From positions 7,899-71,898 of the IMG/VR virus record IMGVR_UViG_3300043748_000039: a stretch of 64,000 nt of DNA, one strand, 5' to 3'. Positions 2,172-61,417 of the stretch are shown one piece after another; position 1 is the stretch's first letter; the number at the start of each line of letters is the position of its first letter. The notes below the pieces were generated by a model. The model searched no databases. It was given only the letters and a program-made list of their open reading frames with translations, and had not been told where the DNA came from. The position numbers and the translations under genes are program-made. This DNA is from a virus (taxonomy: Duplodnaviria > Caudoviricetes).

Positions 2172-3041
2172 ATGACGCTTAATACCTCGGGCATCTCGGT
2201 GCCCGCCGACGCGATCCTCGGTTACCGCAAGGACGGCCGTCCGATCCACCCCATCGCAGGTGGTGCTCCGCAGCCCGGCGAGGGTGGCGATACCGGTGAG
2301 CCGGTCGTCGTCGTCCCGGCCGCTGTCGTCGAGCCGCCTGCCCCTGTTCCGGCCGAGGTCCGCTTCACGGCGGAGGACATCCAGAAGGCGCGGTCCGAGG
2401 AGAAGGACAAGTTGTACAAGCGCCTCCAGGCTCAGGAGGAGCAGATCTCCAAGTTCACGGCCGAGTTGGAGGCTCAGCGCAAGGTGCGCGAGGACGCCCA
2501 GGCCGAGCAGGCGCGTAAGCAGCAGGAGGCGGCGGCCGAGGCGAAGCGCAAGGCCGAGGACGAGATGTCGGCCAAGGACCTCTTGTCTCAGAAGGAGCAG
2601 GAGTGGAACTCCCGCTTCGCGGAGATGGAGCGCCAGCGCGAGGAGGAGCGCACCCTGTTCGCCAAGGAGCAGGAGTTCAACAACCTCCAGTCCTACATTC
2701 AGCGTCGCGTTGGTGAGGAAACCAACGAGATCGCTCCCGAACTTCTCGACTTCGTCGGCGGTAATTCGCCGGAGGAGGTCGAGACGTCTATCGCTACAGT
2801 CAAGGCGAAGACCCAGGCTATTCTGGAATCGGTCCAGCAGGCCGCTATTCAGCAGCGTGCCTCCATGCGTGGTGTGAGCCCCACCGGCTATTCCACCACG
2901 GGACCGATGGACTCTGATCCGGGCACTAAGTCGTACTCCCTTTCTGACCTCCGCGACATGCCGATGTCGGAGTACGCCAAGATTCGGGGCCAGTTGGGCG
3001 TCGGTAATGCCGCCCAGAACCAGCGTGGACTGTACTCGTAA
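2172..3041 (+). CDS. capsid scaffolding protein
   Basis: RBS AGGAG (2157-2161) before ATG 2172 (the track's 2118 start overlaps portal); long E/K/Q/A coiled coil; lies between portal and capsid genes. Confidence 0.75.
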   Translation: MTLNTSGISVPADAILGYRKDGRPIHPIAGGAPQPGEGGDTGEPVVVVPAAVVEPPAPVPAEVRFTAEDIQKARSEEKDKLYKRLQAQEEQISKFTAELEAQRKVREDAQAEQARKQQEAAAEAKRKAEDEMSAKDLLSQKEQEWNSRFAEMERQREEERTLFAKEQEFNNLQSYIQRRVGEETNEIAPELLDFVGGNSPEEVETSIATVKAKTQAILESVQQAAIQQRASMRGVSPTGYSTTGPMDSDPGTKSYSLSDLRDMPMSEYAKIRGQLGVGNAAQNQRGLYS

Positions 3042-3076
3042 TTCGGTCGAGTACCCGTAACTAAGGAAATCCAAGT

Positions 3077-4063
3077 ATGCCAAGCGCGATCACTGGTACC
3101 CCGAATCTGTCGGCTTCTCCGACGGCTTACTCGGGCGCCAACAGCACCCTCGGTGCGGCCATCCAGACCATCTGGAGCAAGGAAATCCTGTTCCAGTCGA
3201 TGCCGATTCTGCGATTCGAGCAGTTCGCCGTGAAGAAGACGGAGCTGGGCGTTCAGCCCGGACTCACGATCAACTTCATGAGGTACAACAATTTGGGTGC
3301 CGCTTCGCAGTTGGTCGAAGGCGTCCGGATGCAGACCAACGCCCTGTCGGCCAGCCAGTTCTCGATCACCGTCGCCGAGCACGGCTACGCCGTGGCCGTC
3401 TCCGAGTTGCTCTTGAACGCGTCCTTCGACGACGTCATGGCCTCGGCCAGCCGCCTGTTGGGCCGCAACATGGCCCTCTACCTCGACCAGTCCGCGCGCG
3501 ACACCCTGCTCCAGGCGTCCTCGAAGATCTGGGGCTACAACAAGTACTCCACCGCTTCGGCGATGACCGGCATGGGTGTCTACGGCCAGGGCACGGCGGC
3601 CACGTCCACCGACGGTCTGGACGGCACCTTCCACTTCACCTCGGCGCTCGTCAAGGACGCCGTGGAAACCCTCGCGACGAAGAATGTCCCGCGTCTCGGC
3701 GAGACCTACGTGGCATTCATCCACCCGCACCAGTCGCGCAAGTTGCGTGACGACCCGGAATTCATTGAGGTCACGAAGTACGCGGCCCCGGGGAACTTCC
3801 TTCTGGGTGAAATCGGCCGCCTCAACGACGTCGTCTTCATCGAGACCACGCAGGTCAAGCAGATCCAGAACTCGGGCAGCAAGACGGTCTACCAGTCGAT
3901 CTTCCTGGGCGACAATGCCTTCGGCCACGCGATCTCCCTCCCGGTGGAACTCCGCGACGGCGGCATCCTCGACTTCGGCCGAGAGCACGCGCTGGCGTGG
4001 TACGCCATCTGGGGCCTCGGTCTCATCACCGACCAGGCCGTTCTGATCGCGGAGACCAACTAA
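3077..4063 (+). CDS. major capsid protein (HK97 fold, N4-gp56-like family)
   Basis: 328 aa; 'WSKEILFQSMPILRFEQFAVKKTELG..PGLTINF' and 'FIHPHQSRKLRDD...GEIGRLNDVVFIET'; RBS AAGGA; followed by a terminator. Confidence 0.9.
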   Translation: MPSAITGTPNLSASPTAYSGANSTLGAAIQTIWSKEILFQSMPILRFEQFAVKKTELGVQPGLTINFMRYNNLGAASQLVEGVRMQTNALSASQFSITVAEHGYAVAVSELLLNASFDDVMASASRLLGRNMALYLDQSARDTLLQASSKIWGYNKYSTASAMTGMGVYGQGTAATSTDGLDGTFHFTSALVKDAVETLATKNVPRLGETYVAFIHPHQSRKLRDDPEFIEVTKYAAPGNFLLGEIGRLNDVVFIETTQVKQIQNSGSKTVYQSIFLGDNAFGHAISLPVELRDGGILDFGREHALAWYAIWGLGLITDQAVLIAETN

Positions 4064-4121
4064 TTCTTCGGCCCGTTCCGACGGCTTAGTTGGTAGTCGC
4101 GCTCACGCGATCCTGACGGTT

Positions 4122-4159
4122 AGGGGAGCGGTTTTCTGGATTACCAGGACCGCTCCCCT
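4122..4159 (+). terminator. stem-loop after capsid gene
   Basis: AGGGGAGCGGT (4122-4132) / ACCGCTCCCCT (4149-4159), with inner CTGG-ATTA-CCAG stem. Confidence 0.7.
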
Positions 4160-4212
4160 TCCTCGTTAAAGTAGTACCGCTTCAAATACCTGAGACGCAC
4201 CCGGAGAAAAAC

Positions 4213-5337: not shown

Positions 5338-6150
5338 ATGGCCACCATTCAGGACCTGCGGTCGCGGGTGCGCAGCGAGCTGGGTGACCGGCTCACGCCG
5401 TTCCGCGACACCATCCGAGGCACCGGGGACGTCGCCGAGTACGAACTGAGCGCCAACAACGTCACGGCCGTCGAGGCCGTCAAGGTCGTCGGCACCACGC
5501 AGACGGTGCTTAATACCCCGGGCGACTACGCCCTCGACCCACTGAACGGCATCCTCACCCTCACCAGCGCGCTACCGCTGGACGCGCTGCTGCTCGTGTC
5601 CGGGCAGTCGTACAGCCTCTTCGCGGACGATGAGCTGGACCAGTACCTCAACGATGCCTTCGCCCAGCACAACCGGGGCCGGACGATCTCCACCCGGTAC
5701 CAGGACGCCAACGGCTTCATCCGCTACGCCGAGGAGCCGGTGGACTTCGCCACCCTCCCGCCGGAGGAAGACATCATGGTCGTCCTCCTCGCGGTCATCG
5801 AGGCGATGTGGGCGCTGGCCACGGACGCGACCACGGACATCAACGTGCAGACCGCCGACGGCACTCACGTCGACCGGGGTCAGCGGTTCGGGCAGTTGCA
5901 GACCCAGATCCAGATGCTCACCGACAGGTACACGATGCTGTGTGAGCGGCTGGGTGTGGGCCTGTACTCGATCGAGGTCACCAACCTGCGCAGGGTCAGC
6001 CGTACGACCGGCCGTCTCGTGCCCCTCTTCCGTGAGCGCGAGTACGACGACTACTCGCTGCCGCAGCGGATCCTCCCGCCGATCGGGCCGGGCCACCAGA
6101 ACGACGACGAGTCCGGCATCCCGTCGCAGACGTGGGGCGGGTACTTCTGA
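5338..6150 (+). CDS. head-to-tail adaptor
   Basis: 270 aa; N-terminal 'IQDLRSRVRSELGD' typical of adaptor/neck proteins; synteny. Confidence 0.6.
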   Translation: MATIQDLRSRVRSELGDRLTPFRDTIRGTGDVAEYELSANNVTAVEAVKVVGTTQTVLNTPGDYALDPLNGILTLTSALPLDALLLVSGQSYSLFADDELDQYLNDAFAQHNRGRTISTRYQDANGFIRYAEEPVDFATLPPEEDIMVVLLAVIEAMWALATDATTDINVQTADGTHVDRGQRFGQLQTQIQMLTDRYTMLCERLGVGLYSIEVTNLRRVSRTTGRLVPLFREREYDDYSLPQRILPPIGPGHQNDDESGIPSQTWGGYF

Positions 6151-6680: not shown

Positions 6681-8786
6681 ATGCAGATAACACTTCCCGA
6701 CGTCGGATCCCCCGCGTGGGGTACGCCGCTCAACACCGCTCTGACGGCGCTTAATACCGGCAAGGCCGACAAGGTCTCCATCAACCCTATGCAGGACTAC
6801 AGCGCCAAGGGTGACGGAGTCACGGACGACACGGCCGCTATTCAGTCCGCGATCAATGCCCTCGGATCGCAGGGCGGTGAGGTGTTCCTTCCGCCCGGCA
6901 ACTTCTTGCTGAACGGTTCCAGCCCTCTCAACCTGACCGCGCCGATCACCCTCCGGGGCTCCGGCCACGGTGCGACGACGATTCGAATCGGGGCGGGCTT
7001 CACCGGAACCAGCGCCATCACGGTCAGTTCCGACGACTGCATGATCCAGGGCCTCCAGATCCGTGGCGCCTCCTCCACGACCACCTCCAACCCGGCCTGC
7101 CACGGCGTGACGGCGACCGGCGTGCAGGAACTCAGGGTCTTCAACACGACCTTCCAGTACGTCAACGGCTACGCCCTGCGGACCTTCGGGACGTCGGGCA
7201 CCACGCTGCACGGCACCCAGATCAACATGATCAAGATTCAGTCCTGTGCGGGCGGAATCCACGTGAAGTCGGACCCGGCAGCACTCGCCGCCAACGTCCA
7301 GATCTCGAACGTGTTCACCAGGTTCCTGGGTGTCAACTCGGGACCCAATGCGAACTTGGACGGATTCAGGATCGAGGATTCCTGGGATGTCCTGGCGCAG
7401 AACATCATGCCTTGGATGCAGGCCACCAACGGTGGCACCGGCGCAGCCCTCCGGGTAAGCGGCAACTGCGCCGCCATTTTTATCCAGAACTTGGACGCAC
7501 TCGGCCCGCAGACTGGGTCGGCCAACGTCGTTGTGGAATCCGGCGCCAACGGGGATCCCCAGAATGTTCAGATCCAGGGCGGCGTAATTCAGCAGGGCCT
7601 CGTGGGAATCCTGATCTCTGGGGCGTCCAATCAGGTCAGGGTCCGCAACGTTCGGATTCTGAATAACCAGACGCACAACGTCTCGGTCACTTCGACCGGC
7701 TACGGCATCTACTTCGACGAGTGCCTGATATCCCAGGGCGGTGCAGGCGCTACCGGCACCAACTACGACGTCTCGTGGACTGGCACCGCCGAGGGCTTCA
7801 TCACCGACACTCGTTTCGGATCCGCCGTCGTGGCCTCCGGCACGGCAGGCGTCCAGGGCATCATCAACATCGCCAACGGCACCATCGTGCGCGTGGTCAA
7901 CGCGAACTTCACGGGGACGGGCACCACTTCCGCCAACTGGTACCCCACCGCGTCGCCGCAGTTCGCCACCCGAGTGGACGGCTCGAACGTCGAGTTCAGC
8001 GGCAACATCGACTTCCGGCTTAATACCGCGCGGCTCTCGCTCAGGCCGAACGCCTCCAGTAACAACGTGTTGGCCACCAACGTCAACGGCGCCGACGCGA
8101 ACGACAGGTTCAGGTTGTTGGGCGACGGCACCCAGCAGATCGGTCCTGGCACCGCCGGGCGTGACACCACGACGGGCCGGGCGGCTACGGGCGTCTGGTA
8201 CACGGACAAGAACGCGCTCATCGGCTCGGCCACGGCGCTCGGTGACAACGGTGTGGGCGAGATCCAGTTGGCCGATGCTGCCACGGTCCCCACGACCAAC
8301 CCGGCCGCAGGCTCGGTCATCTACTCCGCGTCCGCCAGTGCGGTGCCGGTGAAGATGCGTGACGTCTCCGGCAACGTGCGAGGACTGGTGCCTGCCTACG
8401 CCATCGCGTCGGCCGACCAGACGGTCTCGGTGATCACGCAGACCGCCTCGACCTACTTGGCCGTACCGATCGAGGCGTCGGCGACGTACCTCATGGAGGG
8501 GTTCCTGACCATCCAGACGCCGAACGCGGTCAACTTCGTCCACTCCTTCACGGGCCCGAGCGGCGCCGCGATGGTCTGGGGAGACTCCACTGCAACCTCT
8601 GTGGCCACCCTTACCGGCACGGACACCTGGTCCGGTAACGGTGTGAACAAGACCGCCATGATCAAGGGCATGCTGACGACCAGCACCACCGCAGGAACGC
8701 TCACCGTCACGTTCGCCAGCGGTACCGCAGCGAATAACGCGATACTGCGTTCGGGGAGCTGGGTACGGCTCACCCGTGTTAAGTGA
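6681..8786 (+). CDS. tailspike/depolymerase-like protein with pectate-lyase-3 right-handed beta-helix
   Basis: 701 aa; 'DYSAKGDGVTDDTAAIQSAINA...GGEVFLPPGNFL...ITLRGSG' is the pectate_lyase_3 N-terminal signature, followed by beta-helix-like repeats. Confidence 0.8.
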   Translation: MQITLPDVGSPAWGTPLNTALTALNTGKADKVSINPMQDYSAKGDGVTDDTAAIQSAINALGSQGGEVFLPPGNFLLNGSSPLNLTAPITLRGSGHGATTIRIGAGFTGTSAITVSSDDCMIQGLQIRGASSTTTSNPACHGVTATGVQELRVFNTTFQYVNGYALRTFGTSGTTLHGTQINMIKIQSCAGGIHVKSDPAALAANVQISNVFTRFLGVNSGPNANLDGFRIEDSWDVLAQNIMPWMQATNGGTGAALRVSGNCAAIFIQNLDALGPQTGSANVVVESGANGDPQNVQIQGGVIQQGLVGILISGASNQVRVRNVRILNNQTHNVSVTSTGYGIYFDECLISQGGAGATGTNYDVSWTGTAEGFITDTRFGSAVVASGTAGVQGIINIANGTIVRVVNANFTGTGTTSANWYPTASPQFATRVDGSNVEFSGNIDFRLNTARLSLRPNASSNNVLATNVNGADANDRFRLLGDGTQQIGPGTAGRDTTTGRAATGVWYTDKNALIGSATALGDNGVGEIQLADAATVPTTNPAAGSVIYSASASAVPVKMRDVSGNVRGLVPAYAIASADQTVSVITQTASTYLAVPIEASATYLMEGFLTIQTPNAVNFVHSFTGPSGAAMVWGDSTATSVATLTGTDTWSGNGVNKTAMIKGMLTTSTTAGTLTVTFASGTAANNAILRSGSWVRLTRVK

Positions 8787-9555: not shown

Positions 9556-11094
9556 ATGACTGTCTACAAGCGGCCTGGTGTCTACATCTCGGAGACGCTG
9601 ACCCCGCTCACCCAGACCGTGGAGACGCCGGGCGCGTCCGTCGCGGCCTTCGTCGGCACGAACAAGCAGGGCGGCCCGCTGGCTCCCACGCTGGTGTCGT
9701 CCTGGTCCCAGTACGTGGCCACCTACGGCTCCTTCGGGGACACCACCGATCTGCTGCCGTTCGCGGTCTACGCCTACTTCAACAACGGCGGCAACGCGGC
9801 CTACATCGTGCGCGCTGCGGCCTCCGATGCGGTGGCGGCCTCCGTCTCGCTGAACGACTCGGAGACAACTCCGCAGGCCACCCTGAAGGTCTCTGCGATA
9901 TCTTCGGGCGCCTGGGGCAACCAGATCCACATCGACGTCGCCGCGTCCGCGTCCGGTGGTGGCCGGTTCGACCTGTACGTCTACGTTGGCGGTACGACGA
10001 CGGCCTTCCTGAAGGAGCGCTTCACCGAGGTCTCCCTGAACCCGGCCGACTCCCGCAACGCGCAGGCGCTGATCAACTCCCCGGTCACCGGCTCGTCCTT
10101 CATCCAGGTCAAGAGCCTGCTTAATACCACGTGGGACCCGACCCACGCCCCGGCCGCCCAGACCGGCACTGCGCTGGCCAGTGGTTCCGACGGTACGGCC
10201 TCGGTCGACCTGGCGACGGCGACCAAGGCTCTGGAGGTCGTCGAGGAGAACCTGGTCCTCAACCTGCCGGGTGTCTCCGACGCGACGGTGCTCAACCCGA
10301 TCATTGCGTGGGCCGAGACGCAGGGCAGCGTGTTCGTCGTCGTGGACGGCGTGAAGCCCACCAGCGCCGACAACGCCCACTCCTACGCCCTGTCCCTCCA
10401 GAACATGTCCACGGGAGGCTCCGCGCTGACGGACTCCTCCTACGCGGCCGTCTACGGTCCCTGGCTGATCGTTAATGACCCGGCGACCGCCGCCTCGGGC
10501 TCGGCCCGACTGCTTCCTCCGGGCGGTGCTGTTCTCGGCCAGTACTCCCGCACGGACTCCTCGCGCGGCGTGCAGAAGCCCCCGGCCGGTGTCGACACCG
10601 CGCTGCGGGGGGTGCTGGACGTTCAGTTCCGGTTCTCCAACGACGACCAGGACACGCTGAACGTCGCGGGCATCAACGTCATCAAGTCGCTGCCGGGCAC
10701 CGGCTTCGTCATCTACGGCGCCCGCACCCTGTCGACCGACATGCCGGACCGCTACGTCTCGGTCCGCCGGTCGCTGATGCTGATCAAGAAGGGCATCCTC
10801 GACGCCACCCGGTTCGCGGTGTTCGAGCCCAACGACCAGGTCCTGTGGGACCAGGTCAGCGCGGTCATCTCCCAGTACCTGCTGACCCTCATGCAGACCG
10901 GAGTGCTGGCCGGATCCACCCCGGAGCAGGCGTACTTCGTCGTCTGCGACTCGTCCAACAACACCGGCACTTCGGTGGCCAACGGCGTCGTGAACATCTC
11001 CGTCGGCGTCGCGCTTGAGACCCCGGCCGAGTTCATCGTGATCTCGATCGGTCAGTACTCCGGCGGCTCTTCCGCAACCGAGATCGCTTCCTGA
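9556..11094 (+). CDS. contractile tail sheath protein
   Basis: 'YKRPGVYISE', 'YFNNGG', 'RGVQKPPAG', 'YGARTL...RYVSVRR', 'FAVFEPND'. Confidence 0.95.
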   Translation: MTVYKRPGVYISETLTPLTQTVETPGASVAAFVGTNKQGGPLAPTLVSSWSQYVATYGSFGDTTDLLPFAVYAYFNNGGNAAYIVRAAASDAVAASVSLNDSETTPQATLKVSAISSGAWGNQIHIDVAASASGGGRFDLYVYVGGTTTAFLKERFTEVSLNPADSRNAQALINSPVTGSSFIQVKSLLNTTWDPTHAPAAQTGTALASGSDGTASVDLATATKALEVVEENLVLNLPGVSDATVLNPIIAWAETQGSVFVVVDGVKPTSADNAHSYALSLQNMSTGGSALTDSSYAAVYGPWLIVNDPATAASGSARLLPPGGAVLGQYSRTDSSRGVQKPPAGVDTALRGVLDVQFRFSNDDQDTLNVAGINVIKSLPGTGFVIYGARTLSTDMPDRYVSVRRSLMLIKKGILDATRFAVFEPNDQVLWDQVSAVISQYLLTLMQTGVLAGSTPEQAYFVVCDSSNNTGTSVANGVVNISVGVALETPAEFIVISIGQYSGGSSATEIAS

Positions 11095-11698: not shown

Positions 11699-12562
11699 GT
11701 GGCTAACGACCTTAATACCGAGGGGTACTCCAACCCCCTTGCGAACCCTGGTGCAGCAAACGCCGCCATCGCGGCGGTACTCAACCAGGGCGGCGAGGTC
11801 GCAAAGCCCGAGATCGCTCTCCCGGCAGGTGGTAATTTCCGCCTGCCGGGAGGCTACGTCTTGGGCAACGACTTCCCCAGCACCCGTTACGACGCCGAGG
11901 TCCGGGAACTGACCGGCGCGGACGAAGAGGCCATCACCAAGGCCCGCCAGGGCGGCGTCGGCAAGTTCATCTCCACCCTGCTCGCCTCCGGGACAGTATC
12001 CGTGGGCGGTGATCAGTCCAGCCCAGTCCTGCTGGCCAACCTCCTGCTCGGCGACCGCGACATGCTCCTGATGGAGATCCGGCGCGCGACCTACGGCGAC
12101 GAGATCGTCTGGGACCGGTTCTCCTGCATGCACTGCGGCGAGGAGTTCCGCCTGTCCGTCACCCTCGACGAGATCCCCATCCGGCGCCTGGACGACCCCT
12201 CCCAGCGCATCTTCGAAGTCGAACTGCGCAAGGGCCGAAAGGCATTCGTCCGGCTTCCCGTCGGCAACGACCAGGACGCAATCCTCGCCGTCGTCGACCG
12301 GGCCACCGAGTCCGAACAGAACACCCTCCTGCTTTCCCGCTGCCTCATCTCTGTGGTCGAGGCCGACGGCAGTGAGAATGCCGTCAGCGGAAATCCCGAC
12401 TTCGCCCGCTCTCTGGGAATCGTCGACCGCCAGCGCATCCTCGACGCGATTGAGAACAAGCAGCCGGGTCCCCAATACAATGGGGTCAAGTTCACGCACG
12501 AATCGTGCGGAAAGGAGGTCCCCCTCTTCATTACGGCGGGGGATCTGTTTCAGGGCCTGTAA
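11699..12562 (+). CDS. tail assembly chaperone / baseplate hub assembly protein (T4 gp26-like)
   Basis: GTG start, RBS AGGAG; 'VRELTGADEE', 'LLLGDRDMLLMEIRRATYG', CxxC and 'HESCG'; between tube and tape measure. Confidence 0.75.
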   Translation: MANDLNTEGYSNPLANPGAANAAIAAVLNQGGEVAKPEIALPAGGNFRLPGGYVLGNDFPSTRYDAEVRELTGADEEAITKARQGGVGKFISTLLASGTVSVGGDQSSPVLLANLLLGDRDMLLMEIRRATYGDEIVWDRFSCMHCGEEFRLSVTLDEIPIRRLDDPSQRIFEVELRKGRKAFVRLPVGNDQDAILAVVDRATESEQNTLLLSRCLISVVEADGSENAVSGNPDFARSLGIVDRQRILDAIENKQPGPQYNGVKFTHESCGKEVPLFITAGDLFQGL

Positions 12563-29370: not shown

Positions 29371-29412
29371 ATGTCCAGCCGACTTAATATCAACGGCGGG
29401 GTCGCCGAGTGA
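29371..29412 (+). CDS. putative leader minigene MSRLNINGGVAE
   Basis: GGGAG upstream; TGA 29410-12 overlaps GTG 29409; carries CTTAATATC in frame. Confidence 0.4.
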   Translation: MSSRLNINGGVAE

Positions 29413-49192: not shown

Positions 49193-49791
49193 ACACCACC
49201 ACCGCCCCTGTCGACGCGGACACCGAGATCGTCGAGTCGTGGCTGCCGCAGTACATCGGCCTCCACGGCTTCGCCGGGGCCGGTAAGGACGCCGTCGCCA
49301 AGATCCTCGCGAAGTACGGGTACACCCGCGTCGCCTTCGCCGACGTACTGCGCGAGGCCCTGTACGTACTCAACCCGGTCATCCTCTTCCACCCGTACGG
49401 CGAGGACCAGCGAGTCCAGGACCTGGTGGACCGCCACGGCTGGGACGAGGCCAAGCGCCAGTACGAGGAGATCCGCCGGATGCTCCAGGTCCTCGGCACC
49501 GAGGTCGGCCGGGAGATGATCGACCAGAACGTGTGGGTCGACTCGGTGTTCAAGAAGTTGGAGGAGGGCAAGAAGTACGTCTTCACCGACGTCCGCTTCG
49601 TCAACGAACACCACGCGATCGACTCCCGCCTCGGCCTGCTGGTCAAGATCGACCGGCCCGGCGTCGGGCCCGTCAACGACCACAAGTCCGACAAGGGCCT
49701 GCCCGACGAGTGGTTCGACGTCCGGATCGTCAACGACGGAACGCTGGAGGACCTTAATACCAAGGTCCGCGAGATCCTGCGCCTCGCGTGA
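49189..49791 (+). CDS. deoxynucleoside monophosphate kinase
   Basis: 'IGLHGFAGAGKD', 'AFADVLRE', 'LQVLGTEVGR', 'TDVRFVNE'. Confidence 0.88.
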   Translation: MNTTTAPVDADTEIVESWLPQYIGLHGFAGAGKDAVAKILAKYGYTRVAFADVLREALYVLNPVILFHPYGEDQRVQDLVDRHGWDEAKRQYEEIRRMLQVLGTEVGREMIDQNVWVDSVFKKLEEGKKYVFTDVRFVNEHHAIDSRLGLLVKIDRPGVGPVNDHKSDKGLPDEWFDVRIVNDGTLEDLNTKVREILRLA

Positions 49792-50195
49792 CCACCCCCA
49801 AGATCTGCAAGGACTGTGAGCCCGGGAGCAAGCGCCCAGCGCCCAATCCCGGCCCACGGTGCGCAACCCACTGGCGCGAGGAGAAGGAGCGGCGCAAGAA
49901 GGCCGCCCACGAGAAGCGCGTCCAGACCACCTACGGACTCGGTGACGGCGACTACGACACGCTGTACGAGTCCCAGGGCGGGAAGTGCGCGATCTGCCGC
50001 CGCGCCACGGGAGCAACCCGGCGCCTGTCGGTCGACCATGATCACAAGACGCTGCTCGTGCGAGGACTGCTATGCCGACCATGTAACGACATGCTCGGCC
50101 ACTCCCGGGACGACCCCGAGTTCTTCGCCCGAGCCAAGGGGTACCTCGAAAAGCCGCCAGCGCAGGATCTAGGCCGCTGGTACGCACCGAAGTAA
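49788..50195 (+). CDS. recombination endonuclease VII
   Basis: 'QGGKCAIC...LSVDHDH..VRGLLC..CN..LG'. Confidence 0.9.
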   Translation: MTTPKICKDCEPGSKRPAPNPGPRCATHWREEKERRKKAAHEKRVQTTYGLGDGDYDTLYESQGGKCAICRRATGATRRLSVDHDHKTLLVRGLLCRPCNDMLGHSRDDPEFFARAKGYLEKPPAQDLGRWYAPK

Positions 50196-51993: not shown

Positions 51994-53246
51994 TGGCTGG
52001 CAAGACCCCCGCACAGAAGGCAGCGGACACCCGCACCTACAACAAGACCGTCAAGGAGGCGACCGGCAAGCGCGAGTCCTTCGAGGCGGCGAACCCTGAG
52101 CGGTTCAAGACCATCCAGGACCACCCGGGCGCCGGTCGCACCCCGCGCCAGTCGTACTCCCTGATGGGCAACACCGACAAGGCGCCGAACCTGCACGGAC
52201 AGATGGAACTCGCGGGCCCGGAGGGATCGAACGTCTGGCACGGCCAGCACACCATGGCCCCGGCCAAGGACATGATGCCGGTCAACCGGCGGTGGGAGGA
52301 CTTCGCCCCACACGAGCAGGCCCGCGTGCTGCGCTCGGCCGCGAAGTTCGGCGTCACCCCAGACTCCGCGCACCGCTCCCTGGCTGCCCAGGTCGACCGC
52401 GCCTACGCCCACGAGGGCGGGCACCACGACAGTTTCTACAGCCCGGCCGAGGACCACACCCGCGACGGCTCCCTGTCGCCGCGTGCGCGCCTGAAGGTGT
52501 CGGCGAAGGAGAACGGCGTCCCCTTCGGCGTGCAGGCCGCTGCGAACGCGATCACGTCCCCGCAGAACGTCTTCGTCCGGCCGGACAAGGAGACGGGCAA
52601 GGCCGTCTACCCCAACGACGAGGCCGCCAGCCACGCGATCCAGTGGGCGAAGTCCGGGAAGACCGGCGACGAGTACCACTACCACAAGGACTACTACGTC
52701 CCGCGTGAGGACAAGGTCGAGAAGACCGTCAACTCGAAGTCCGGCAAGAGGACCACGCTGGTCAAGAAGGACAGCGACACCCGGGCGTACCCAGCCAACG
52801 GCTACCCCCGTAACCACGCGCTCGCGATCGACGTGACCCACCAGGTCCTCAACGGCAAGCAGTTGCGGGATGCGTGGAAGCCGTCGGCCGGTGAGAAGGT
52901 CTCCGCTTACCACAACTCCTGGGTCGACCCGCACGGCTCCTCGCAGTTCTGGGTGTCCGACACGCACTCCGGTGGTGGCGCCTTCGCCCCGCACCTGGAG
53001 GACAAGAAGGGCTCGAACAGCCAGGAGGCGTACATGGGCATCAAGGGCATCCACGCCTTCCACGACCATGTCGCGCGGAACGTGATGCAGGAGCGGGGCC
53101 TGAACTCGCTCACCAACATGCAGTCCGCCCAGTGGAGCGAGGAGAAGCGGCGACGGGGCGACAACCACGACGCCTCGCTTAATACCTACGGCAAGTCCGG
53201 CGGGCTTAATACCTCGGTCCACCCGGGCCAGCAGAAGTTGTTCTAA
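51993..53246 (+). CDS. hypothetical protein (417 aa)
   Basis: ATG 51993; 'AAANAITSPQN', 'SDTH', 'QSAQWSEEKR'; ends in QQKLF. Confidence 0.75.
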   Translation: MAGKTPAQKAADTRTYNKTVKEATGKRESFEAANPERFKTIQDHPGAGRTPRQSYSLMGNTDKAPNLHGQMELAGPEGSNVWHGQHTMAPAKDMMPVNRRWEDFAPHEQARVLRSAAKFGVTPDSAHRSLAAQVDRAYAHEGGHHDSFYSPAEDHTRDGSLSPRARLKVSAKENGVPFGVQAAANAITSPQNVFVRPDKETGKAVYPNDEAASHAIQWAKSGKTGDEYHYHKDYYVPREDKVEKTVNSKSGKRTTLVKKDSDTRAYPANGYPRNHALAIDVTHQVLNGKQLRDAWKPSAGEKVSAYHNSWVDPHGSSQFWVSDTHSGGGAFAPHLEDKKGSNSQEAYMGIKGIHAFHDHVARNVMQERGLNSLTNMQSAQWSEEKRRRGDNHDASLNTYGKSGGLNTSVHPGQQKLF

Positions 53247-53969: not shown

Positions 53970-54941
53970 ATGTCTCTCCACGGAGTCGACCTCTCCAACA
54001 ACAACGACGCCGCGCACATCGCTGCGGCCATCGCCAACAAGAACAACGCGTTCATCATCGCCAAGGCTTCCGAAGGCGAGCACACGGGCGACACGAAGCA
54101 TGCGGCGATCGTGAAGGCCGCCAGGTCCGCGCACAAGGCGTTGGGTCACTACCACTTCGCCCACCCGACCCAGGACGCGGTCACGGAGGCCAAGCACTTC
54201 CTGTCCGCTGCGGGCGCGCTGCCGGGCGAGGTCCTGGCGCTCGACCTGGAGGCATCCGAGGGTTCCTGGTCCCAGCGGCTGCATTACGCGCTGACGTGGC
54301 TGCGGTACGTGAAGAAGGCGACGGGTGCGTCCCCGCTCTTCTACACCTACACCTCCTACATCCAGGGCCTGCGGACGGTCGCTTCCCCGGCGGAGTGGTC
54401 GGAGTTGCGTACCTACCCGCTGTGGATCGCCGACCCCAACAACCCGGCGGGGCATCCGGCCACCGAGGGCTGGGGCGCGTGGACGATCGACCAGTACGGC
54501 GAGGTCAGCAACGTCGACCAGAACCTGCTGAACGGTGACCTTAATACCTGGAAGGCCCTGGCCATCCCGGCCAAGGTCACCAAGCCTGCACCGGCTCCGG
54601 CTCCGCACCCGGCGCCCGCTCCTACCCCTGCTCCAACCCCTGCGAAGGCATACTCCATGGTCATCTACGGTTCCGGCACTGACGCGATGACGGCCGCTGC
54701 GGCCACCGAGGCGTTCCAGCCGAAGGGTGCGGTCGCCACGGCCCGCCTCGACGTCGCCCAGGCGGCGCTGAAGGCCGGGGACCAGGTCGTCGCGGTCGGC
54801 GGTCCGGCCAACAAGGCGATCGGCTTCACCCACTCCAAGCAGGGCACCGTCGCCATCGACGGCAAGAAGATCGCGGTGGACGGCGCCACGGCTGGTGACA
54901 CCTACGTGCTGCTCGGCCGCTACCTGGCCACCGGCAAGTAA
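53970..54941 (+). CDS. endolysin, GH25 muramidase with PA linker and C-terminal putative cell-wall-binding domain
   Basis: 'GVDLSNNN', 'IAKASEG', 'GHYHF', 'LALDLE', 'LWIA', 'QY...VDQN'; PAPAP linker. Confidence 0.88.
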   Translation: MSLHGVDLSNNNDAAHIAAAIANKNNAFIIAKASEGEHTGDTKHAAIVKAARSAHKALGHYHFAHPTQDAVTEAKHFLSAAGALPGEVLALDLEASEGSWSQRLHYALTWLRYVKKATGASPLFYTYTSYIQGLRTVASPAEWSELRTYPLWIADPNNPAGHPATEGWGAWTIDQYGEVSNVDQNLLNGDLNTWKALAIPAKVTKPAPAPAPHPAPAPTPAPTPAKAYSMVIYGSGTDAMTAAAATEAFQPKGAVATARLDVAQAALKAGDQVVAVGGPANKAIGFTHSKQGTVAIDGKKIAVDGATAGDTYVLLGRYLATGK

Positions 54942-55547: not shown

Positions 55548-55934
55548 ATGCCTGACGTCCCGATCCTCGGCCAGACCAGCAGCACCCCGTCGCTTAATAC
55601 CGACGACCTCACCCCCGAGCAGCGCGAGGCCCTGGCCAAGATGGCCGAGGAGAACCCTCCCGCCGAGGACGAGGTCGGCACCTCCGTCACCACCGCGTTC
55701 CTCGTCGCCATCGGCCTGGACGGCGCGGTCGTCGCCACCTCCGACCTCACCCAGCAGTTCGTGCCCCGGCGCGGCGCCACCCCCGACGACATCTACGGAG
55801 CCTCCTCCGTCGTCCTGAAGGACCTCCAGGTCATGGAGACGGCCCAGAGGACCCAGCAGGCCATGATGATGATGGGCCAGGCCATGCAGCAGCAGGCCCA
55901 GGAAGCCGCCCTCCGTCAGCGCCTCAAACTCTGA
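55548..55934 (+). CDS. hypothetical protein
   Basis: ATG 55548 after GGAG; Q/M-rich C-terminal helix. Confidence 0.7.
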   Translation: MPDVPILGQTSSTPSLNTDDLTPEQREALAKMAEENPPAEDEVGTSVTTAFLVAIGLDGAVVATSDLTQQFVPRRGATPDDIYGASSVVLKDLQVMETAQRTQQAMMMMGQAMQQQAQEAALRQRLKL

Positions 55935-56010: not shown

Positions 56011-57003
56011 ATGGCCGGATACGAGTTCTACCTCAATCGAGCAATCACCCAGGGAGCGCAGCCCGACATTCACACGGGCGCCTCGGGGTATTTCAGCACG
56101 CCCCAGGCAGGGCTCGACCCGCACATCTTCGACGGGGACCACATCAAGCCCGACGTACGGGACCACATCCTCGGCGTCCTTAATACCTACCTCGACGCCC
56201 ACTACCAGGGCGTACGCGCCTGGATGGCTGCCTGGCTGGCCGGATCCGGCATCTCTTTCCAGTGGGCCGGAGACCGAGGCAACGGGGACCTGGACGTCCT
56301 CTTCGGAATCGACTTCCCGAAGTTCTACGAGATGAACCCTACCTACCAGGGAATCTCCGAAGCCGAATTCGCCGACCTCATGAACACCGACCTCAAGAAG
56401 AACCTGTGGCCCCGCACCGCGACCACGGATTTCCACGGCCAGGTCTACGAGGTCACCTACTACCTGAACCCTGGCACCACGTCGCATTCCATTGCGGCCA
56501 TCAACCCGTACGCCGCCTACAACCTCACCGCCGATCGCTGGGACATCCGGCCGCCGTCCCTGCCCGCCGACCCGCGCAGCCTGTACCCGGCCGAGTGGTG
56601 GAAGGCCGTCGAGGACGAGAAGGCCCACGCGCGCCTGCTCGTCGACCGGTACAGCCACCTGCGCACCCAGGCCGCATCCGCCGCCCCCAACTCCCCGGCG
56701 TGGCAGAACTCCCTGACCTCCCAGAAGGTTGTCGTCGAGCAGGCCAAGGCCCTCTTCGACTCCATCCACCTCGGCCGCCGGGACGCCTTCGGGCCAGGAG
56801 GGTCCGGCTACGGCGACTACGCAAACTTCCGCTGGCAGGCACACAAGGAGTCCGGCACCGTCCAGGCCCTCAACACCCTCGCCACAGCGGACGTCGAGGC
56901 CAAGAAGGCGCAGGAGACCGACCTGTACGGGGCTCCGCTCGACTCCGCCGCCATGGCCCTGGCCAAGGCGGCTCTCTGGCAAACCCCCTACCGGAGGTCG
57001 TAA
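56011..57003 (+). CDS. DNA polymerase-beta-superfamily nucleotidyltransferase
   Basis: 'WLAGSGISFQW...GDLDVLFGID' gives the hGS...DxD signature; third acidic 'YEVTYY'. Confidence 0.75.
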   Translation: MAGYEFYLNRAITQGAQPDIHTGASGYFSTPQAGLDPHIFDGDHIKPDVRDHILGVLNTYLDAHYQGVRAWMAAWLAGSGISFQWAGDRGNGDLDVLFGIDFPKFYEMNPTYQGISEAEFADLMNTDLKKNLWPRTATTDFHGQVYEVTYYLNPGTTSHSIAAINPYAAYNLTADRWDIRPPSLPADPRSLYPAEWWKAVEDEKAHARLLVDRYSHLRTQAASAAPNSPAWQNSLTSQKVVVEQAKALFDSIHLGRRDAFGPGGSGYGDYANFRWQAHKESGTVQALNTLATADVEAKKAQETDLYGAPLDSAAMALAKAALWQTPYRRS

Positions 57004-58642: not shown

Positions 58643-59310
58643 GCGTCAAGGGCATCAACGAGATCACCAGCAGATTCAAGGAGCGCTGGCTCTCCCCGCT
58701 CCAGTTCCCCGGCTCGCACCGCTCCGTCGAACAGCGGCTGACCGACCTGGAGAGCGGCAAGAGCGGCCAGAAGCCCTCCAGCCCGCGCGCCAAGACCCGC
58801 GTCAAGGGACAGAAGAGTCAGGCGCCCGCCCCGCAGGCGTCCCCGGCCGTCCGCGAGGAGGTCAAGCGGGTCGGGGAAGACCACGCCTCGGACTCCTACG
58901 CCTGGCACGCCGAGCACTCCGGCGCGGCCTCCGACCTCCTGCACACCTTCAACCAGCGCATGGACTCGATCCAGGCGCAGAAGAAGCCGTCGCAGTCCGG
59001 CGGCTGGGCCGCGTACAACGACACCTTCGGCTCGGGCGCCAAGTCGACGGCCAGCCCGGCCGCTCCGGCGGCTGCCCCGCTTAATACCCCGGCCGCCCCG
59101 GCGGCCCCGAAGCCGCAGCGAGTCACCCAGCCGGGCCTGTTCGGCCCGAGCCAGGTCACCCCGGTCCGCTCCCCGCAGCAGTTCGGCCTGGCCGCGAAGT
59201 CCAAGCCGCTTAATACCCAGGCCGCCCCGGGCGGTCCGTCGGCGCCGAGGAAGCCCCGCGTGACCCAGCCCGGCCTCTTCCCGAAGAGCGCCGTCAAGCC
59301 CCCGCAGTAA
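58639..59310 (+). CDS. low-complexity P/A/K-rich protein with internal repeat
   Basis: ATG 58639; two 'PLNT...P.RVTQPGLF' units. Confidence 0.7.
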   Translation: MSVKGINEITSRFKERWLSPLQFPGSHRSVEQRLTDLESGKSGQKPSSPRAKTRVKGQKSQAPAPQASPAVREEVKRVGEDHASDSYAWHAEHSGAASDLLHTFNQRMDSIQAQKKPSQSGGWAAYNDTFGSGAKSTASPAAPAAAPLNTPAAPAAPKPQRVTQPGLFGPSQVTPVRSPQQFGLAAKSKPLNTQAAPGGPSAPRKPRVTQPGLFPKSAVKPPQ

Positions 59311-59336
59311 CCAACCCCGATTCGGAGAAACAACCC

Positions 59337-60875
59337 GTGGAACTGTACTTCGGCGGATCCGAGATTCCCGGCTGGCGCAAGATGCTGGCCGAGGAAGGCG
59401 TCGAGACCGTCTCCCTGTCGTACATGGGCCTGCGGCGCCGGACGAAGTTCGCCCGGCCCTGGCTCATCGCCGACCACTACCTGGAGGGCCAGAAGGTCTT
59501 CCTGGACAGCGGTGCCTACACCGTGAACAAGGCCGACGACGACAAATACTCGATCGGCGAACTCAAGGAGATCGCCGCGCACTACGAGGCATTCGTCCAG
59601 CAGAACATCGACTCCCTTAATATGGTGTCCGAGTTCGACGCGGTCGTTCTCGGACGGGAATGGATAGAGGCCCGGCGCGAGGATTTCTGGGAGGATCTGC
59701 CGGAGGACAAGTTCCTTCCCATCTGGCACGCGGAATGGGGCGTCGAAGAACTCGACCGCCTCGCTCAGCGCTATAAGCGCGTCGGAGTAACGCAAACGGA
59801 TCTGGACGGACGGAATCTCGCCCCCGTCCTCAACGACATCACCCGGAAATATGGAACGCTGCTCCACGGCGTCGCAATGACGAAGCCAGCGGAAATGGCA
59901 GCGGTGAACTGGGATTCCGTCGCGTCCACCTCCTGGCTTTCCCCGTCCCAGTACGGCGACACCATCGTCTGGACCGGCCGGGAATTGAAGCGGTACCCGA
60001 AGAAATACAAGGACCAGGCCCGAAAGAGACACCGCACCCTTTTCCAGGAAGCAGGCTTCGATCCGGACAAGATCGAGGACGGTGACAACAACGAGGTCCT
60101 GCGCTTCACCATCTGGTCGTGGCAGCAACTGGCCGCCTCCATCGAGCAGCACCGTGCGCCTGACGTCGTTGCAGTTACTACTTCCGCTTCAGGGGTACTC
60201 TCCGCTTTCTCTCAAATGCAGGGGGGCACAGTTGATACGGCGACCGGAGAAATGGTCAACGGCGTAGCAACTCCCACCCCCCGCAAGGAGCGGGCACGTA
60301 CCAACTTGCCGGTCATCGGCCTGGTGCAGGAGAAGGAGGTCTACACCGACCCGGACGACGGCGTGAACAAGGAGCGCGAGGTCCCGCTGGTGACCGTCCG
60401 CTCGCAGTCCATGCGCGTCTGCGCGACCTGCTTCCTGGCCCAGAAGTGCCCGGCCTTCGACAAGGACGCCAACTGCGCCTACGACATTCCGGTCGAAGTG
60501 AAGAGCAAGCAGCAGATGGCCGCACTCCAGAATTCCCTCATCGAGATGCAGGCGCAGCGGGTCCTCTTCATGAAGATGGTGGAGGACATGACCGGTGGTT
60601 ACGCGGATCCGAACCTCTCCGGCGAGATCGACCGTCTCCAGAAACTGGTGAAGGTGAAGACCGAACTGGAGCAGGACTCGTTCTCCGTGAAACTGGAGGC
60701 GAAGGGGAACGGCGCCCAGGCCGGGATGATCAGCCGTCTGTTCGGAAAGGACGCGGGCGAGCAGATGACCGCCCTAGACAACCCCATCTCGGCGGACCGG
60801 ATGATCGAGTCGGGCAGCGGATTCATCGACGCGGAAATCGTCGATGTACCAACTTTCTACAACCAGGAAGGCTAG
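59337..60875 (+). CDS. TGT/DpdA-fold (tRNA-guanine transglycosylase-like) protein with C-terminal Cys4 domain
   Basis: 'SLSY', 'VFLDSGAYT', 'FLPIWH', 'LHGVAMT', 'DSVASTSW' follow the phage DpdA/TGT motif order; C-terminal 'CATC...C...C'. Confidence 0.72.
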   Translation: MELYFGGSEIPGWRKMLAEEGVETVSLSYMGLRRRTKFARPWLIADHYLEGQKVFLDSGAYTVNKADDDKYSIGELKEIAAHYEAFVQQNIDSLNMVSEFDAVVLGREWIEARREDFWEDLPEDKFLPIWHAEWGVEELDRLAQRYKRVGVTQTDLDGRNLAPVLNDITRKYGTLLHGVAMTKPAEMAAVNWDSVASTSWLSPSQYGDTIVWTGRELKRYPKKYKDQARKRHRTLFQEAGFDPDKIEDGDNNEVLRFTIWSWQQLAASIEQHRAPDVVAVTTSASGVLSAFSQMQGGTVDTATGEMVNGVATPTPRKERARTNLPVIGLVQEKEVYTDPDDGVNKEREVPLVTVRSQSMRVCATCFLAQKCPAFDKDANCAYDIPVEVKSKQQMAALQNSLIEMQAQRVLFMKMVEDMTGGYADPNLSGEIDRLQKLVKVKTELEQDSFSVKLEAKGNGAQAGMISRLFGKDAGEQMTALDNPISADRMIESGSGFIDAEIVDVPTFYNQEG

Positions 60876-60887
60876 TTAGTACTTCTC

Positions 60888-61037
60888 ATGAGCGCGCACG
60901 TGCATGCAGTGTCTTTCGCCGACAACGACGAGGACGCAGCAGAAGAGGTCGAGTGCAAGCGGTGCTACGGCACCGGGGAGGACCGCGACGGAGCGGACTG
61001 TGTCCCCTGCGAGGGCTACGGTACGGTGCTGGTATGA
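60888..61037 (+). CDS. 49-aa DnaJ-type zinc-finger protein
   Basis: CKRCYGTG and CVPCEGYG (two CxxCxGxG); TGA overlaps next ATG. Confidence 0.65.
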   Translation: MSAHVHAVSFADNDEDAAEEVECKRCYGTGEDRDGADCVPCEGYGTVLV

Positions 61038-61417
61038 ACAGATTCCGCCATCTCAAGGCCACCCTCATCGCAATCGGAATTCTCGCGGTTCCCGCGATCG
61101 GAATTTCCGTGATCCCCGAGCAGAATTCCCCTTCCCTTAATACCTCGGAATCCCAGTCGGATTCCTCCAGAACCGAAGGGGATTCCAACCCCTGGCCCGT
61201 CCCCACGGTTACCCGCTACGTGGAGCTGCCCTCGCGGCAGAATTCGGGCACGTGCAAGGTGCACATCGTGGTCGGGCCCTCGCCCGTAGTGCCTGCGCCC
61301 ACTTCCACGGATACGCCGTACGCGCCCGTATACGGGCTCGCGCACACGCATTCCGTGCAGGTCAAGATTCCGTGCCCCAAGGAAACGGTCACGGAAACGC
61401 CAACTCCTACCAAGTAG
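61034..61417 (+). CDS. secreted/membrane-anchored P/T/S-rich protein
   Basis: ATG 61034; signal/TM 'ATLIAIGILAVPAIGI'. Confidence 0.55.
   Translation: MNRFRHLKATLIAIGILAVPAIGISVIPEQNSPSLNTSESQSDSSRTEGDSNPWPVPTVTRYVELPSRQNSGTCKVHIVVGPSPVVPAPTSTDTPYAPVYGLAHTHSVQVKIPCPKETVTETPTPTK

Follow-up and report, generated by a model that had tools for sequence, protein, structure and literature searches.

The 9-mer CTTAATACC that recurs throughout this phage DNA is the first part of a composite element consisting of the 9-mer, a spacer of 2 nt and a GC-rich hairpin whose sequence is arbitrary. This composite is a cis-signal private to one clade of phages, and its copies are exact, sense-oriented, clustered at starts and changed in concert between dialects. 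The change of one letter at all copies in a sister lineage points to an undescribed signal with a probably phage-encoded reader. Our leading, but tentative, reading is that phage transcripts carry an RNA-level signal, read by a putative phage factor that would control translation starts or mRNA ends. An earlier reading of this DNA, made from its letters only, had described a bare DNA word; the hairpin, the sister dialect and the link to start codons, none of which it had seen, change the picture to a composite element on single-stranded nucleic acid.

Thirty exact copies of CTTAATACC occur in the window (the whole 64,000-nt stretch that was analysed, with a measured GC content of about 65% and not the 67% assumed earlier) and, together with four copies of CTTAATAT, bring the word CTTAATAY to 34 occurrences, every one on the + strand. 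Dinucleotide shuffles predict 0.03 CTTAATACC and 0.13 CTTAATAY, and a synonymous-codon shuffle in called genes predicts 0.4 copies (both orientations) versus 23 found in these genes, which upholds the excess and the strand bias claimed by the sequence-only reading. Since tolerating one mismatch gains just five extra sites, the 9-mer is an all-or-none word. Of the 27 Leu-Asn-Thr tripeptides in the genome (about 4 expected), 23 are written CTT-AAT-ACC. This peptide is a by-product of the nucleotide word: the codon shuffle and the homologous sites agree with the earlier claim that nucleotides are constrained and the peptide is not. That claim had cited Leu-Asn-Thr in ordinary codons elsewhere, which we found at 6729 (CTCAACACC) and 19546 (CTCAACACT), but the ACC given for 19545 was wrong. 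The extension CTTAATACC(G/A)AGG was confirmed at ten copies. An assembly artefact, considered earlier, is ruled out, since dozens of independent IMG/VR contigs have the word at homologous positions. Phages of the clade carry about 35-40 exact 9-mers each, at about one per 2.6 kb. The copies in the window are as follows.

2178..2205, +, 9-mer and stem-loop (7 bp), starting 6 nt past the ATG of gene 2172
5509..5533, +, 9-mer, 2 nt and stem-loop (5 bp), gene-internal; only the window and L027 have the site
6750..6777, +, 9-mer and weak stem-loop, 23 codons into a tail-fibre-like gene
8019..8048, +, 9-mer and weak stem-loop, gene-internal
10120..10147, +, 9-mer and stem-loop (6 bp), within the tail sheath gene; the CTTCATACC lineage is without the site
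11711..11740, +, 9-mer and stem-loop, GTG start 4 codons before
15592..15615, +, 9-mer, 2 nt and stem-loop (5 bp), near the end of the tape measure gene
18412..18449, +, 9-mer and imperfect stem-loop, gene-internal
27317..27341, +, 9-mer, 2 nt and stem-loop (5 bp, one G.T)
28973..28981, +, variant CTTAATATC, without a hairpin at the fixed offset
29383..29407, +, variant CTTAATATC and stem-loop, in a minigene of 13 codons, with a stop that overlaps the GTG of the replication initiator gene
31292..31319, +, 9-mer, 2 nt and stem-loop (7 bp), in a short ORF; the 3' arm contains the next gene's GGAG, and the ATG is 35 nt from the 9-mer start
34252..34276, +, 9-mer, 2 nt and stem-loop (5 bp), within a minigene of 14 codons (AGGAG, ATG); next ATG 32 nt from the 9-mer start
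37600..37629, +, 9-mer, 2 nt and stem-loop (7 bp), in a MerR-like HTH gene
38352..38380, +, 9-mer and stem-loop (7 bp)
39390..39428, +, 9-mer, 2 nt and two-tier stem-loop, 13 codons into the DNA polymerase I gene; conserved in four genomes
41379..41415, +, 9-mer, 2 nt and bulged stem-loop, ATG 16 codons before
41942..41969, +, 9-mer, 2 nt and stem-loop (6 bp)
43126..43134, +, 9-mer without a clear hairpin, within the ribonucleotide reductase gene
44061..44101, +, 9-mer and imperfect stem-loop, at ATG + 6 nt of the UvsX-like recombinase gene
45237..45265, +, 9-mer, 2 nt and stem-loop (7 bp, one G.T), with a TGATG stop/start junction in the loop
45681..45707, +, 9-mer, 2 nt and stem-loop (6 bp), stop 17 codons on and next GTG 47 nt downstream
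47950..47979, +, 9-mer, 2 nt and stem-loop (7 bp), at ATG + 6 nt of the ThyX gene
49753..49793, +, 9-mer and stem-loop, ending at a GTGA stop/start overlap; start 35 nt from the 9-mer start
53178..53186, +, 9-mer, first member of a pair, partner 27 nt away
53205..53229, +, 9-mer, 2 nt and stem-loop (5 bp), stop 13 codons on
54540..54578, +, 9-mer and stem-loop at a 5-nt offset
55593..55601, +, 9-mer without hairpin, start about 15 codons before; the G001 homologue has a strong hairpin
56179..56218, +, 9-mer and weak stem-loop
57183..57220, +, variant CTTAATATC, 2 nt and 11-bp stem-loop
59080..59106, +, 9-mer, 2 nt and stem-loop (6 bp)
59209..59236, +, 9-mer, 2 nt and stem-loop (7 bp, one G.T)
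59616..59655, +, variant CTTAATATG, 2 nt and long stem-loop, in a DpdA-like gene; conserved in four genomes
61136..61165, +, 9-mer, 2 nt and stem-loop (7 bp)

In 20 of the 34 copies, exactly 2 nt separate the 9-mer from the GC-rich stem-loop, against a background of 2.5% per position, and 17-25 of about 41 copies in relatives have the same offset. Hairpins show no enrichment upstream of the 9-mer and almost never overlap it, and mean folding energy downstream is -11.4 versus -7.1 kcal/mol (p = 5e-33). Homologous sites keep the start of the hairpin but not its sequence, and compensatory pairs are present. For instance, relatives show three different hairpins beginning at the same point at site 15592. 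In the window itself, the stems of the 47950 and 37600 copies are one compensatory pair apart. Since 92% of the pairs are Watson-Crick and folding energy is not significantly different between sense and antisense (p = 0.14-0.2), the choice of the folding strand hinges on internal non-Watson-Crick pairs, which are G.T at four independent sites and A.C at none (controls, 17% and 18%).

As noted earlier, about half of the copies lie near gene starts or ends. Their positions peak 6 nt past the start codon and 32 to 35 nt before it, and at the latter distance the Shine-Dalgarno sequence is inside the hairpin in four of five independent cases. Furthermore, the four between-gene copies are in translated minigenes that have a ribosome-binding site and a stop overlapping the next start, and whose frame is conserved while their peptides are not. 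The 9-mer in a DUF2637-HTH gene leader is paired with a complement located downstream, which changes along with the dialect and can equally be viewed as an inverted half-site in duplex DNA.

Each copy is in frame within an ORF having a start upstream. The absence of reverse-complement copies holds inside the window, but the 71.9-kb record contains one at 3022-3030, 4.9 kb upstream of the window, and this sole reverse copy is sense-oriented within a small minus-strand ORF. Four related genomes have one reversed copy each, in sense within a small minus-strand ORF in the three of them with ORFs called. Orientation therefore tracks gene direction. The check on leftward genes proposed earlier thus favours a signal linked to transcription or RNA, on the basis of one conserved minus-strand site at which transcription and any divergent replication are indistinguishable.

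The phages carrying CTTAATACC form a clade of Streptomyces phages that looks temperate by gene content (serine and tyrosine recombinases, minus-strand XRE/WhiJ-like regulator). In a sister lineage, CTTCATACC replaces CTTAATACC at the same sites, with one letter changed at every copy. All four-way homologous sites have switched from C to A and relics persist, which suggests a co-evolving reader. The CTTCATACC dialect looks ancestral, with relics surviving in CTTAATACC genomes, and comparison of the sites shows that copies arise in place by point substitution. Five Streptomyces genomes (41 Mb) contain no CTTAATACC and 7-10 CTTCATACC each, which is the chance level, in line with the phage self-signal proposed by the sequence-only reading; a search of more distant phage relatives found no equivalent word. 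These absences argue against a host-wide reader. The Chi/KOPS-type cue, also proposed, is disfavoured in a host-read form by the lack of the word in host chromosomes, and host-read Chi is excluded.

In our leading reading, the 9-mer, which is AU-rich, lacks G and does not vary (CUUAAUACC; in the sister lineage, CUUCAUACC), would be read on the sense transcript. The hairpin would sequester the GC-rich neighbouring sequence and leave the 9-mer single-stranded at its foot, where a sequence-specific factor, most likely phage-encoded, would bind or cut. The likely point of control would be mRNA fate at gene boundaries. A copy 6 nt past the start codon would lie within the ribosome initiation footprint, and one 32-35 nt before it would place the Shine-Dalgarno in the 3' arm of the hairpin; since copies take these positions, binding or cutting could switch the translation of middle and late genes. 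If the 9-mer is cut, the new 5' end would be 2-4 nt from a protective hairpin. We infer that RNA is the molecule read and that the putative reader is phage-encoded, as well as the direction of the effect. Against this reading, the dialect changed just once in evolution, and about half of the copies are gene-internal, where a role at translation starts is inapplicable and a cut would destroy the message.

No described counterpart of the word and its hairpin was found, in agreement with the earlier statement that the element was not a recognised one. In the Com-mom system of Mu, a single-stranded protein site is likewise located directly 5' of a hairpin with a ribosome-binding site, but Com has one target. 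T4 RegA and RegB, as proposed here, control many mRNAs via short words at translation starts; however, they use short or degenerate words that occur solely in initiation regions, whereas the present word does not vary and is gene-internal in half of its copies. Lambda nut (boxA + boxB) and HK022 Nun also involve a conserved linear RNA element that precedes a hairpin and is read on the nascent transcript, but their boxB sequence is conserved and read directly at two sites per genome, at operon starts, whereas here about 40 sites have arbitrary stems.

Alternatively, the 9-mer could be the melted recognition element of a phage-specific promoter, used by a putative phage factor redirecting host RNA polymerase or by a novel phage polymerase; the transcript would start at or beside the spacer and the hairpin would become a 5'-terminal stabiliser. 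We consider this unlikely. The copies are exact, phage-private and all co-oriented with genes (about one per 2.6 kb), like the promoters of T7-group phage polymerases, which are private exact co-oriented words (about one per 2.5 kb) with a stem-loop at the RNA 5' end and, among related phages, specificity positions that shift together; the dialect switch is reminiscent of T7 and T3, in which promoter and polymerase have co-evolved. With a start codon 32-35 nt downstream, the 5' leader would be short, gene-internal copies would be harmless, and the repressor module and a 15-kb small-gene block (72-87 kb of G001) are without the word, as expected for early or lysogenic genes. However, neither Sigma70_r2 nor a T7-type polymerase was found in three complete genomes, nor was an unexplained polymerase-sized ORF; just 9 nt are conserved, no -35-like signal was found upstream of them, and canonical TTGACA-17-TAGAGT promoters exist elsewhere. 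Moreover, ordinary -10 spacing would put the transcription start within the 5' arm of the stem, a 5' hairpin would lock the Shine-Dalgarno, and many copies lie deep in genes or just past start codons, several independent ones at exactly +6 nt, so that the transcript would miss that gene's start.

The stoperator-like site suggested by the sequence-only reading is still a rival, although quite an improbable one: a monomeric prophage repressor would bind the asymmetric 9-bp word in duplex DNA and block elongating RNA polymerase in one orientation, silencing lytic genes, with dialects as immunity groups and the hairpin as a secondary adaptation protecting mRNA at an AU-rich patch. Cluster A mycobacteriophage stoperators (L5 gp71, TipsytheTRex repressor) are 13-bp, hairpin-free duplex sites in short intergenic gaps and, as here, tens of asymmetric sites are spread across a temperate actinophage genome, with orientation correlated with transcription, gene boundaries favoured and site sequence diverging between related phages (PMC9283540, PMC6550527). 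The temperate-looking gene content, the about 40 asymmetric sites that point along transcription like those of L5 (PMC9283540), the site-free repressor module, the enrichment at gene boundaries, one regulatory intergenic region with an inverted partial repeat of the word that co-varies with the dialect, and the exchange of site-free modules between dialects are in favour of such an operator. Nevertheless, the present sites are mostly intragenic, within codons, and the word is 9 bp and near-invariant versus 13 bp with tolerated variation; the hairpin at a fixed 2-nt offset without overlap and the translated minigenes are left unexplained. Furthermore, the one recognisable repressor has alleles that fail to follow the dialect, the 70% and 77-81% groups each occurring with both words. 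A sense-strand signal in single-stranded DNA (lagging-strand priming site, phage-read recombination hotspot or strand-specific nick site) is very unlikely. Hairpins are found beside the start site in G4-type origins, and strand-specific nicks in T5-like phages; the mean spacing (1.8-2.6 kb) resembles Okazaki-fragment length, the phages encode DnaB, a DnaG-type primase, a UvsX-like recombinase and a Cas4-like nuclease, the hairpins as DNA fold equally well on either strand, and the single reversed copy is where gene direction, and possibly replication, diverges. Known primases, however, read about 3 nt and not 9, primase alleles are not cleanly separated by dialect, minigenes and start-codon spacing would have no reason, and the bias of G.T over A.C better suits RNA. 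It is hardly credible that the element is a terminator of antisense transcription, appearing on the opposite strand as a hairpin, 2 nt and GGUAUUAAG, a weak U-containing tail. Its orientation relative to genes would follow naturally and two copies score terminator-like on the minus strand in a consensus scan, but the tail begins NNGG with just 3-5 U, fewer in the CTTCATACC dialect, a generic terminator has no need of an invariant 9-mer or of a one-letter switch made in concert, and the sense G.T pairs would be C.A mismatches in antisense RNA.

The DNA uptake sequences of Neisseriaceae and Pasteurellaceae, which serve DNA uptake and occur genome-wide on both strands in bacteria, are likewise exact 9-12-mers gained by point substitution in tolerated frames of coding sequence, with lineage-specific one-letter dialects that co-evolve with their receptor. 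Unlike them, the word described here is phage-borne, strictly sense-oriented and linked to a hairpin.

A recount of the window upheld the tally of the sequence-only reading, i.e. 30 exact copies of the 9-mer CTTAATACC and four of its last-letter variant CTTAATAT, all on the + strand. Dinucleotide shuffles give 0.03 expected copies of the former and 0.13 of both taken together. Since allowing one mismatch adds just five further sites in the window, this word is essentially all-or-none. As had also been argued from the sequence, the constraint bears on the nucleotides and not on the peptide. The codon-preserving shuffle proposed by that reading, done with synonymous codons in called genes, gave 0.4 expected copies vs 23 observed. 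The tripeptide Leu-Asn-Thr is about 7-fold over-represented, with 23 of its 27 occurrences encoded CTT-AAT-ACC (CTT and AAT represent 6% and 11% of their respective codon families). This excess results solely from the word: it is gone after removal of the word-encoded copies and a sister lineage encodes Leu-His-Thr, which rules out a peptide-level signal. Each copy belongs to an ORF that starts upstream of it and is always in the frame CTT-AAT-ACC. The earlier argument about the frame stands, as does the GAGG/AAGG extension of the word. A programmed frameshift or bypass was rejected because frames run on for hundreds of codons and the stop codon in the -1 frame is present in the A dialect (CTTAATACC) only.

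Copies appear irregularly rather than evenly spaced along the window (gaps of 27 to about 8,900 nt) and about half of them are internal to genes. They are found near starts at about twice the frequency expected by chance, and fall there into two sharp classes. In one class, the word begins 6 nt past the start codon (ATG NNN CTTAATACC); the window has three such copies and the related genome G001 at least five, and others are found in two further relatives, G002 and G003. In the other, the start codon is located 32-35 nt after the word, immediately beyond a hairpin. When a start lies 29-47 nt downstream, the Shine-Dalgarno sequence is within this hairpin in four of five independent cases. Just three of the 34 copies are located between annotated genes:

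29383, + strand, copy in a minigene
31292, + strand, copy in a minigene
34252, + strand, copy in a minigene

One more such copy is found in relatives. These minigenes have a ribosome-binding site and a stop that overlaps the next start. Their peptides diverge; their start, frame and stop are conserved.

The word is followed, after a 2-nt spacer, by a GC-rich hairpin. A stem of at least 5 bp starting right after the spacer, at exactly 11 nt from the word's first base, is present at 20 of the 34 copies, for a background of 2.5% per position. Around these 34 copies, there is no stem enrichment upstream of the word and almost no stem overlaps it. The 32 nt downstream of the word have a mean folding energy of -11.4 kcal/mol vs -7.1 kcal/mol in controls (p = 5e-33). 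The same composite of word, spacer and hairpin is found in three full relatives. At homologous sites, the position where the hairpin starts is conserved, stem and loop are re-invented (for instance, the tape-measure site has three different hairpins among homologues) and stems contain compensatory pairs. Stems are 92% Watson-Crick, and folding energies show no significant difference between the sense and antisense strands. The sole pointer to the strand that folds is a hint given by internal non-canonical pairs, which are G.T at four independent sites and A.C at none. No Rfam family matches the window at the gathering threshold.

The phage is a myovirus of a high-GC actinobacterium. Its IMG/VR record, of which the window covers bases 7899-71898, has 71.9 kb and an estimated completeness of 72%. 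Portal, capsid, sheath, baseplate and tape measure genes were identified, together with genes encoding a replication initiator, a DnaC-like loader, DnaB, a DnaG-type primase, DNA polymerase I, ribonucleotide reductase, a UvsX-like recombinase, a Cas4-like nuclease, ThyX and a DpdA-like transglycosylase. Among cultured phages, its closest relatives are GiJojo, pSt2308 and BRock of Streptomyces (45-49% sheath identity). Many close relatives are found in IMG/VR and others are prophages of sequenced Streptomyces isolates. Complete relatives (105-110 kb) encode serine and tyrosine recombinases, a WhiJ-like HTH + DUF397 pair on the minus strand, and an RNA-repair cassette (RlaP-family nucleotidyltransferase, Rnl1-type RNA ligase and PNKP kinase-phosphatase), as well as 4-5 tRNAs. 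In G001, this cassette is located outside the window (locus L067:9385-13448, i.e. 89.4-93.4 kb of G001), near a second tRNA cluster of four tRNAs (Pro, Phe, Leu-CAA, Asn). G003 carries an additional tRNA-His of 86 nt.

The sole reverse copy in the record lies upstream of the window (record positions 3022-3030). It is in sense orientation within a minus-strand ORF of 47 codons, and it too is followed by a hairpin at the 2-nt offset. Four related genomes (G001 to G004) harbor exactly one reversed copy apiece. In the three with called ORFs (G001 to G003), this copy is inside a small minus-strand ORF, which adjoins a recombinase gene in G001 and G003. Since the flanks of these copies are unrelated, what is conserved is the presence of the copy. 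Copy orientation therefore follows gene direction and flips in leftward genes, a point that the sequence-only reading had proposed to check; this relies on one conserved minus-strand instance, at which a change in the direction of transcription would coincide with that of any divergent replication. Across 17 loci, the minus-strand repressor module is free of copies in both orientations.

At these same positions, relatives of about 80% sheath identity carry CTTCATACC or variants of it that end in T or G; there are 30-32 copies per genome, never mixed with the A form. This C dialect converts Leu-Asn-Thr into Leu-His-Thr. The C form is also found in deeper lineages (loci L231 and L232, and weakly genome G007), so it is probably ancestral and the A form derived. 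In G007 (the 67-kb record containing L046; 52% sheath identity), four exact CTTCATACC and about five near-variants are on the gene strand vs one on the opposite strand, and hairpins are present at some copies only. Genomes of the A type retain relics, with CTTCATATT found at one of the homologous sites and a single CTTCATACC in the relative G025. In the leader of a DUF2637-HTH gene of relatives, the word is followed by TAG and then by GGTATT (A type) or GGTATG (C type), which pairs with the word and shows a compensatory change at the dialect position. This pairing is compatible with two readings, an RNA hairpin hiding the word and a DNA half-site in inverted orientation. Site gains and losses between close relatives result from substitutions within collinear alignments, for instance with CTGAACACC or CTCACCACC opposite CTTAATACC. 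A mobile miniature element (REP/MITE-like) was therefore rejected: relatives that lack a site are collinear, with substitutions only and no insertion, and stems are unrelated.

Depletion in the host, another check put forward from the sequence, was examined in five Streptomyces genomes (41 Mb in total), which contain no CTTAATACC and 45 CTTCATACC without strand bias (25 forward, 20 reverse). Chi and KOPS words, in contrast, are over-represented and skewed in the host chromosome, so that the earlier suggestion of a Chi/KOPS-like cue is disfavoured as far as reading by host machinery is concerned. No equivalent enriched word was found in GiJojo and relatives of 45-52% sheath identity (including G006, G008 and G013). 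When viral contigs were scanned for paired copies, high-GC multi-copy matches came solely from three contigs, which belong to the sample series of this clade's relatives (one being G005). The concerted dialects and the absence from hosts and distant relatives point to a specific reader co-evolving with its sites and not to a general host system.

The clade-specific genes form a long list from which no reader was singled out. In a test of association with dialect over nine genomes, the top matches were small ORFs that themselves carry or adjoin sites, which confounds the test; primase, DnaB, polymerase, terminase and DpdA were not separated by dialect. The WhiJ-like HTH_31/DUF5753 regulator and its DUF397 partner (minus strand; L068:445-1498 in G001, and loci L235-L250) fall into two groups of alleles, which are about 70% and 77-81% identical to G001 and both occur with both dialects. 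This indicates exchange of this site-free module between lineages, and the pattern suggests that movement between dialects is restricted to modules lacking sites. Since its alleles do not track dialect, this regulator, the sole recognisable repressor, was rejected as the reader. Other candidates rejected were a resolvase-like 114-aa ORF and a 151-aa ORF (31327-31782) located between the DnaC-like loader and DnaB. The latter has a predicted HAD/PNKP-phosphatase-like fold (pLDDT 71; best PDB matches Pnkp1 and T4 PNKP, E ~0.01; first motif degenerate). A trans-acting antisense RNA was discarded, as no genome contains a sense-oriented complement of the word, even with G-U allowed, except for a partial complement in one leader. 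A link with tRNAs is inconsistent, tRNA-Asn being present in both dialects and tRNA-His in G003 only. No Com-like activator was identified.

The fixed 2-nt spacer, the arbitrary stems and the avoidance of overlap speak for reading of the word in single-stranded form, at the base of a helix. Sense orientation, translated minigenes, start-codon spacing and the G.T bias make RNA the best fit for such reading. The favoured reading, plausible though short of probable, is thus that the element is an RNA cis-signal: a putative phage factor would bind or cut the word on RNA and act on translation starts or mRNA ends. A single-stranded-DNA signal (priming, recombination or nicking site) appears very unlikely and an antisense terminator extremely improbable. 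A phage-specific promoter would account for the privacy, exactness and dialects of the word but fits poorly with start-proximal copies. Moreover, T7-type phage promoters depend on a phage-encoded RNA polymerase or a dedicated sigma factor, whereas neither a sigma factor (PF04542) nor a T7-type polymerase (PF00940) was matched in three complete genomes; the PF00940 control also matched no control genome, which makes this last result weak, and highly diverged factors may escape such matches. We consider a promoter unlikely.

Stoperators of the Cluster A mycobacteriophage type are by definition asymmetric sites present in more than 20 copies per genome and oriented with transcription (PMC9283540). 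The suggestion of a stoperator-like site made from the sequence holds for copy number and orientation, since 30-40 copies per genome are all sense-oriented. It does not hold for location, because stoperators occupy promoter regions and short gaps between genes whereas all copies here are in frame inside ORFs. Nor, as far as the sole recognisable repressor shows, does it hold for the immunity repressor, which co-varies with stoperators whereas both WhiJ-like allele groups occur with both words. A DNA operator of this type would suit a temperate lifestyle but leaves the hairpin unexplained, and seems quite unlikely. A more speculative form of the RNA cis-signal, which we regard as doubtful, is an RNA-level counterpart of stoperators. 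A phage-encoded, sequence-specific RNA-binding or -cutting protein would read a private tag (the 9-mer on its clamp hairpin) on nearly every middle and late transcript and switch translation or stability as a block. Dialects would then define compatibility or immunity groups and act as a recombination barrier, limiting exchange to tag-free modules such as the repressor cassette.

As anticipated by the sequence-only reading, no described element with this anatomy was found in the literature or Rfam; literature searches on the word returned primers only and those on phage motifs nothing relevant. The closest concepts are stoperators (PMC9283540, PMC6550527), T7-type promoters, Com-mom and RegA/RegB operators, and nut sites. 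In the Com-mom operator, an unpaired site immediately precedes a hairpin in which the RBS or start codon is hidden. Copies followed by a start within 29-47 nt can show such a layout and may be comparable; the comparison does not apply to gene-internal copies. Lambda-type nut sites have a boxB of conserved sequence and one site per operon start, whereas stems and loops vary here over about 40 sites. In evolutionary terms, an analogue is provided by the dialects of DNA uptake sequences.

If the RNA reading holds, one short tag in coding sequence would address about 40 places on the phage's own transcripts and almost no host target. To our knowledge, genome-wide post-transcriptional control of this kind is undescribed for actinophages. 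The complete one-letter switch, the surviving relics and the exchange of tag-free modules only would provide a natural system for the co-evolution of a reader with dispersed sites and show how it limits phage mosaicism. The tag and its reader could also serve as an orthogonal expression or immunity switch in Streptomyces. Since close relatives are prophages of sequenced Streptomyces isolates, these proposals can be tested at the bench.

Several other features of these phages were observed. The 512-aa protein encoded at 59337-60875 matches phrog_887 (queuine tRNA-ribosyltransferase, DpdA-like; E = 1e-78 for the G001 homologue), which suggests 7-deazaguanine DNA modification; no connection with the 9-mer was found. 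Two sigma-70-like promoters (36442-36470 and 36930-36958; TTGACA or TGGACA, 17 nt, TAGAGT) are located in the gap past the SF2 helicase gene, and neither is associated with the 9-mer. The ribonucleotide reductase (42280-43914, 544 aa) shares just about 25% identity with an enzyme of 649 aa found at the same place in G001 (51489-53438), G002 and G003, indicating gene replacement. Furthermore, relatives carry, about 740 nt upstream of the sheath gene, a conserved and unusually AT-rich stretch (…tctgactataaactt…tcttgggatcctgaatggcggaagact; L011:552-612, L013:8416-8476 and homologues) in phages that otherwise have 65% GC.
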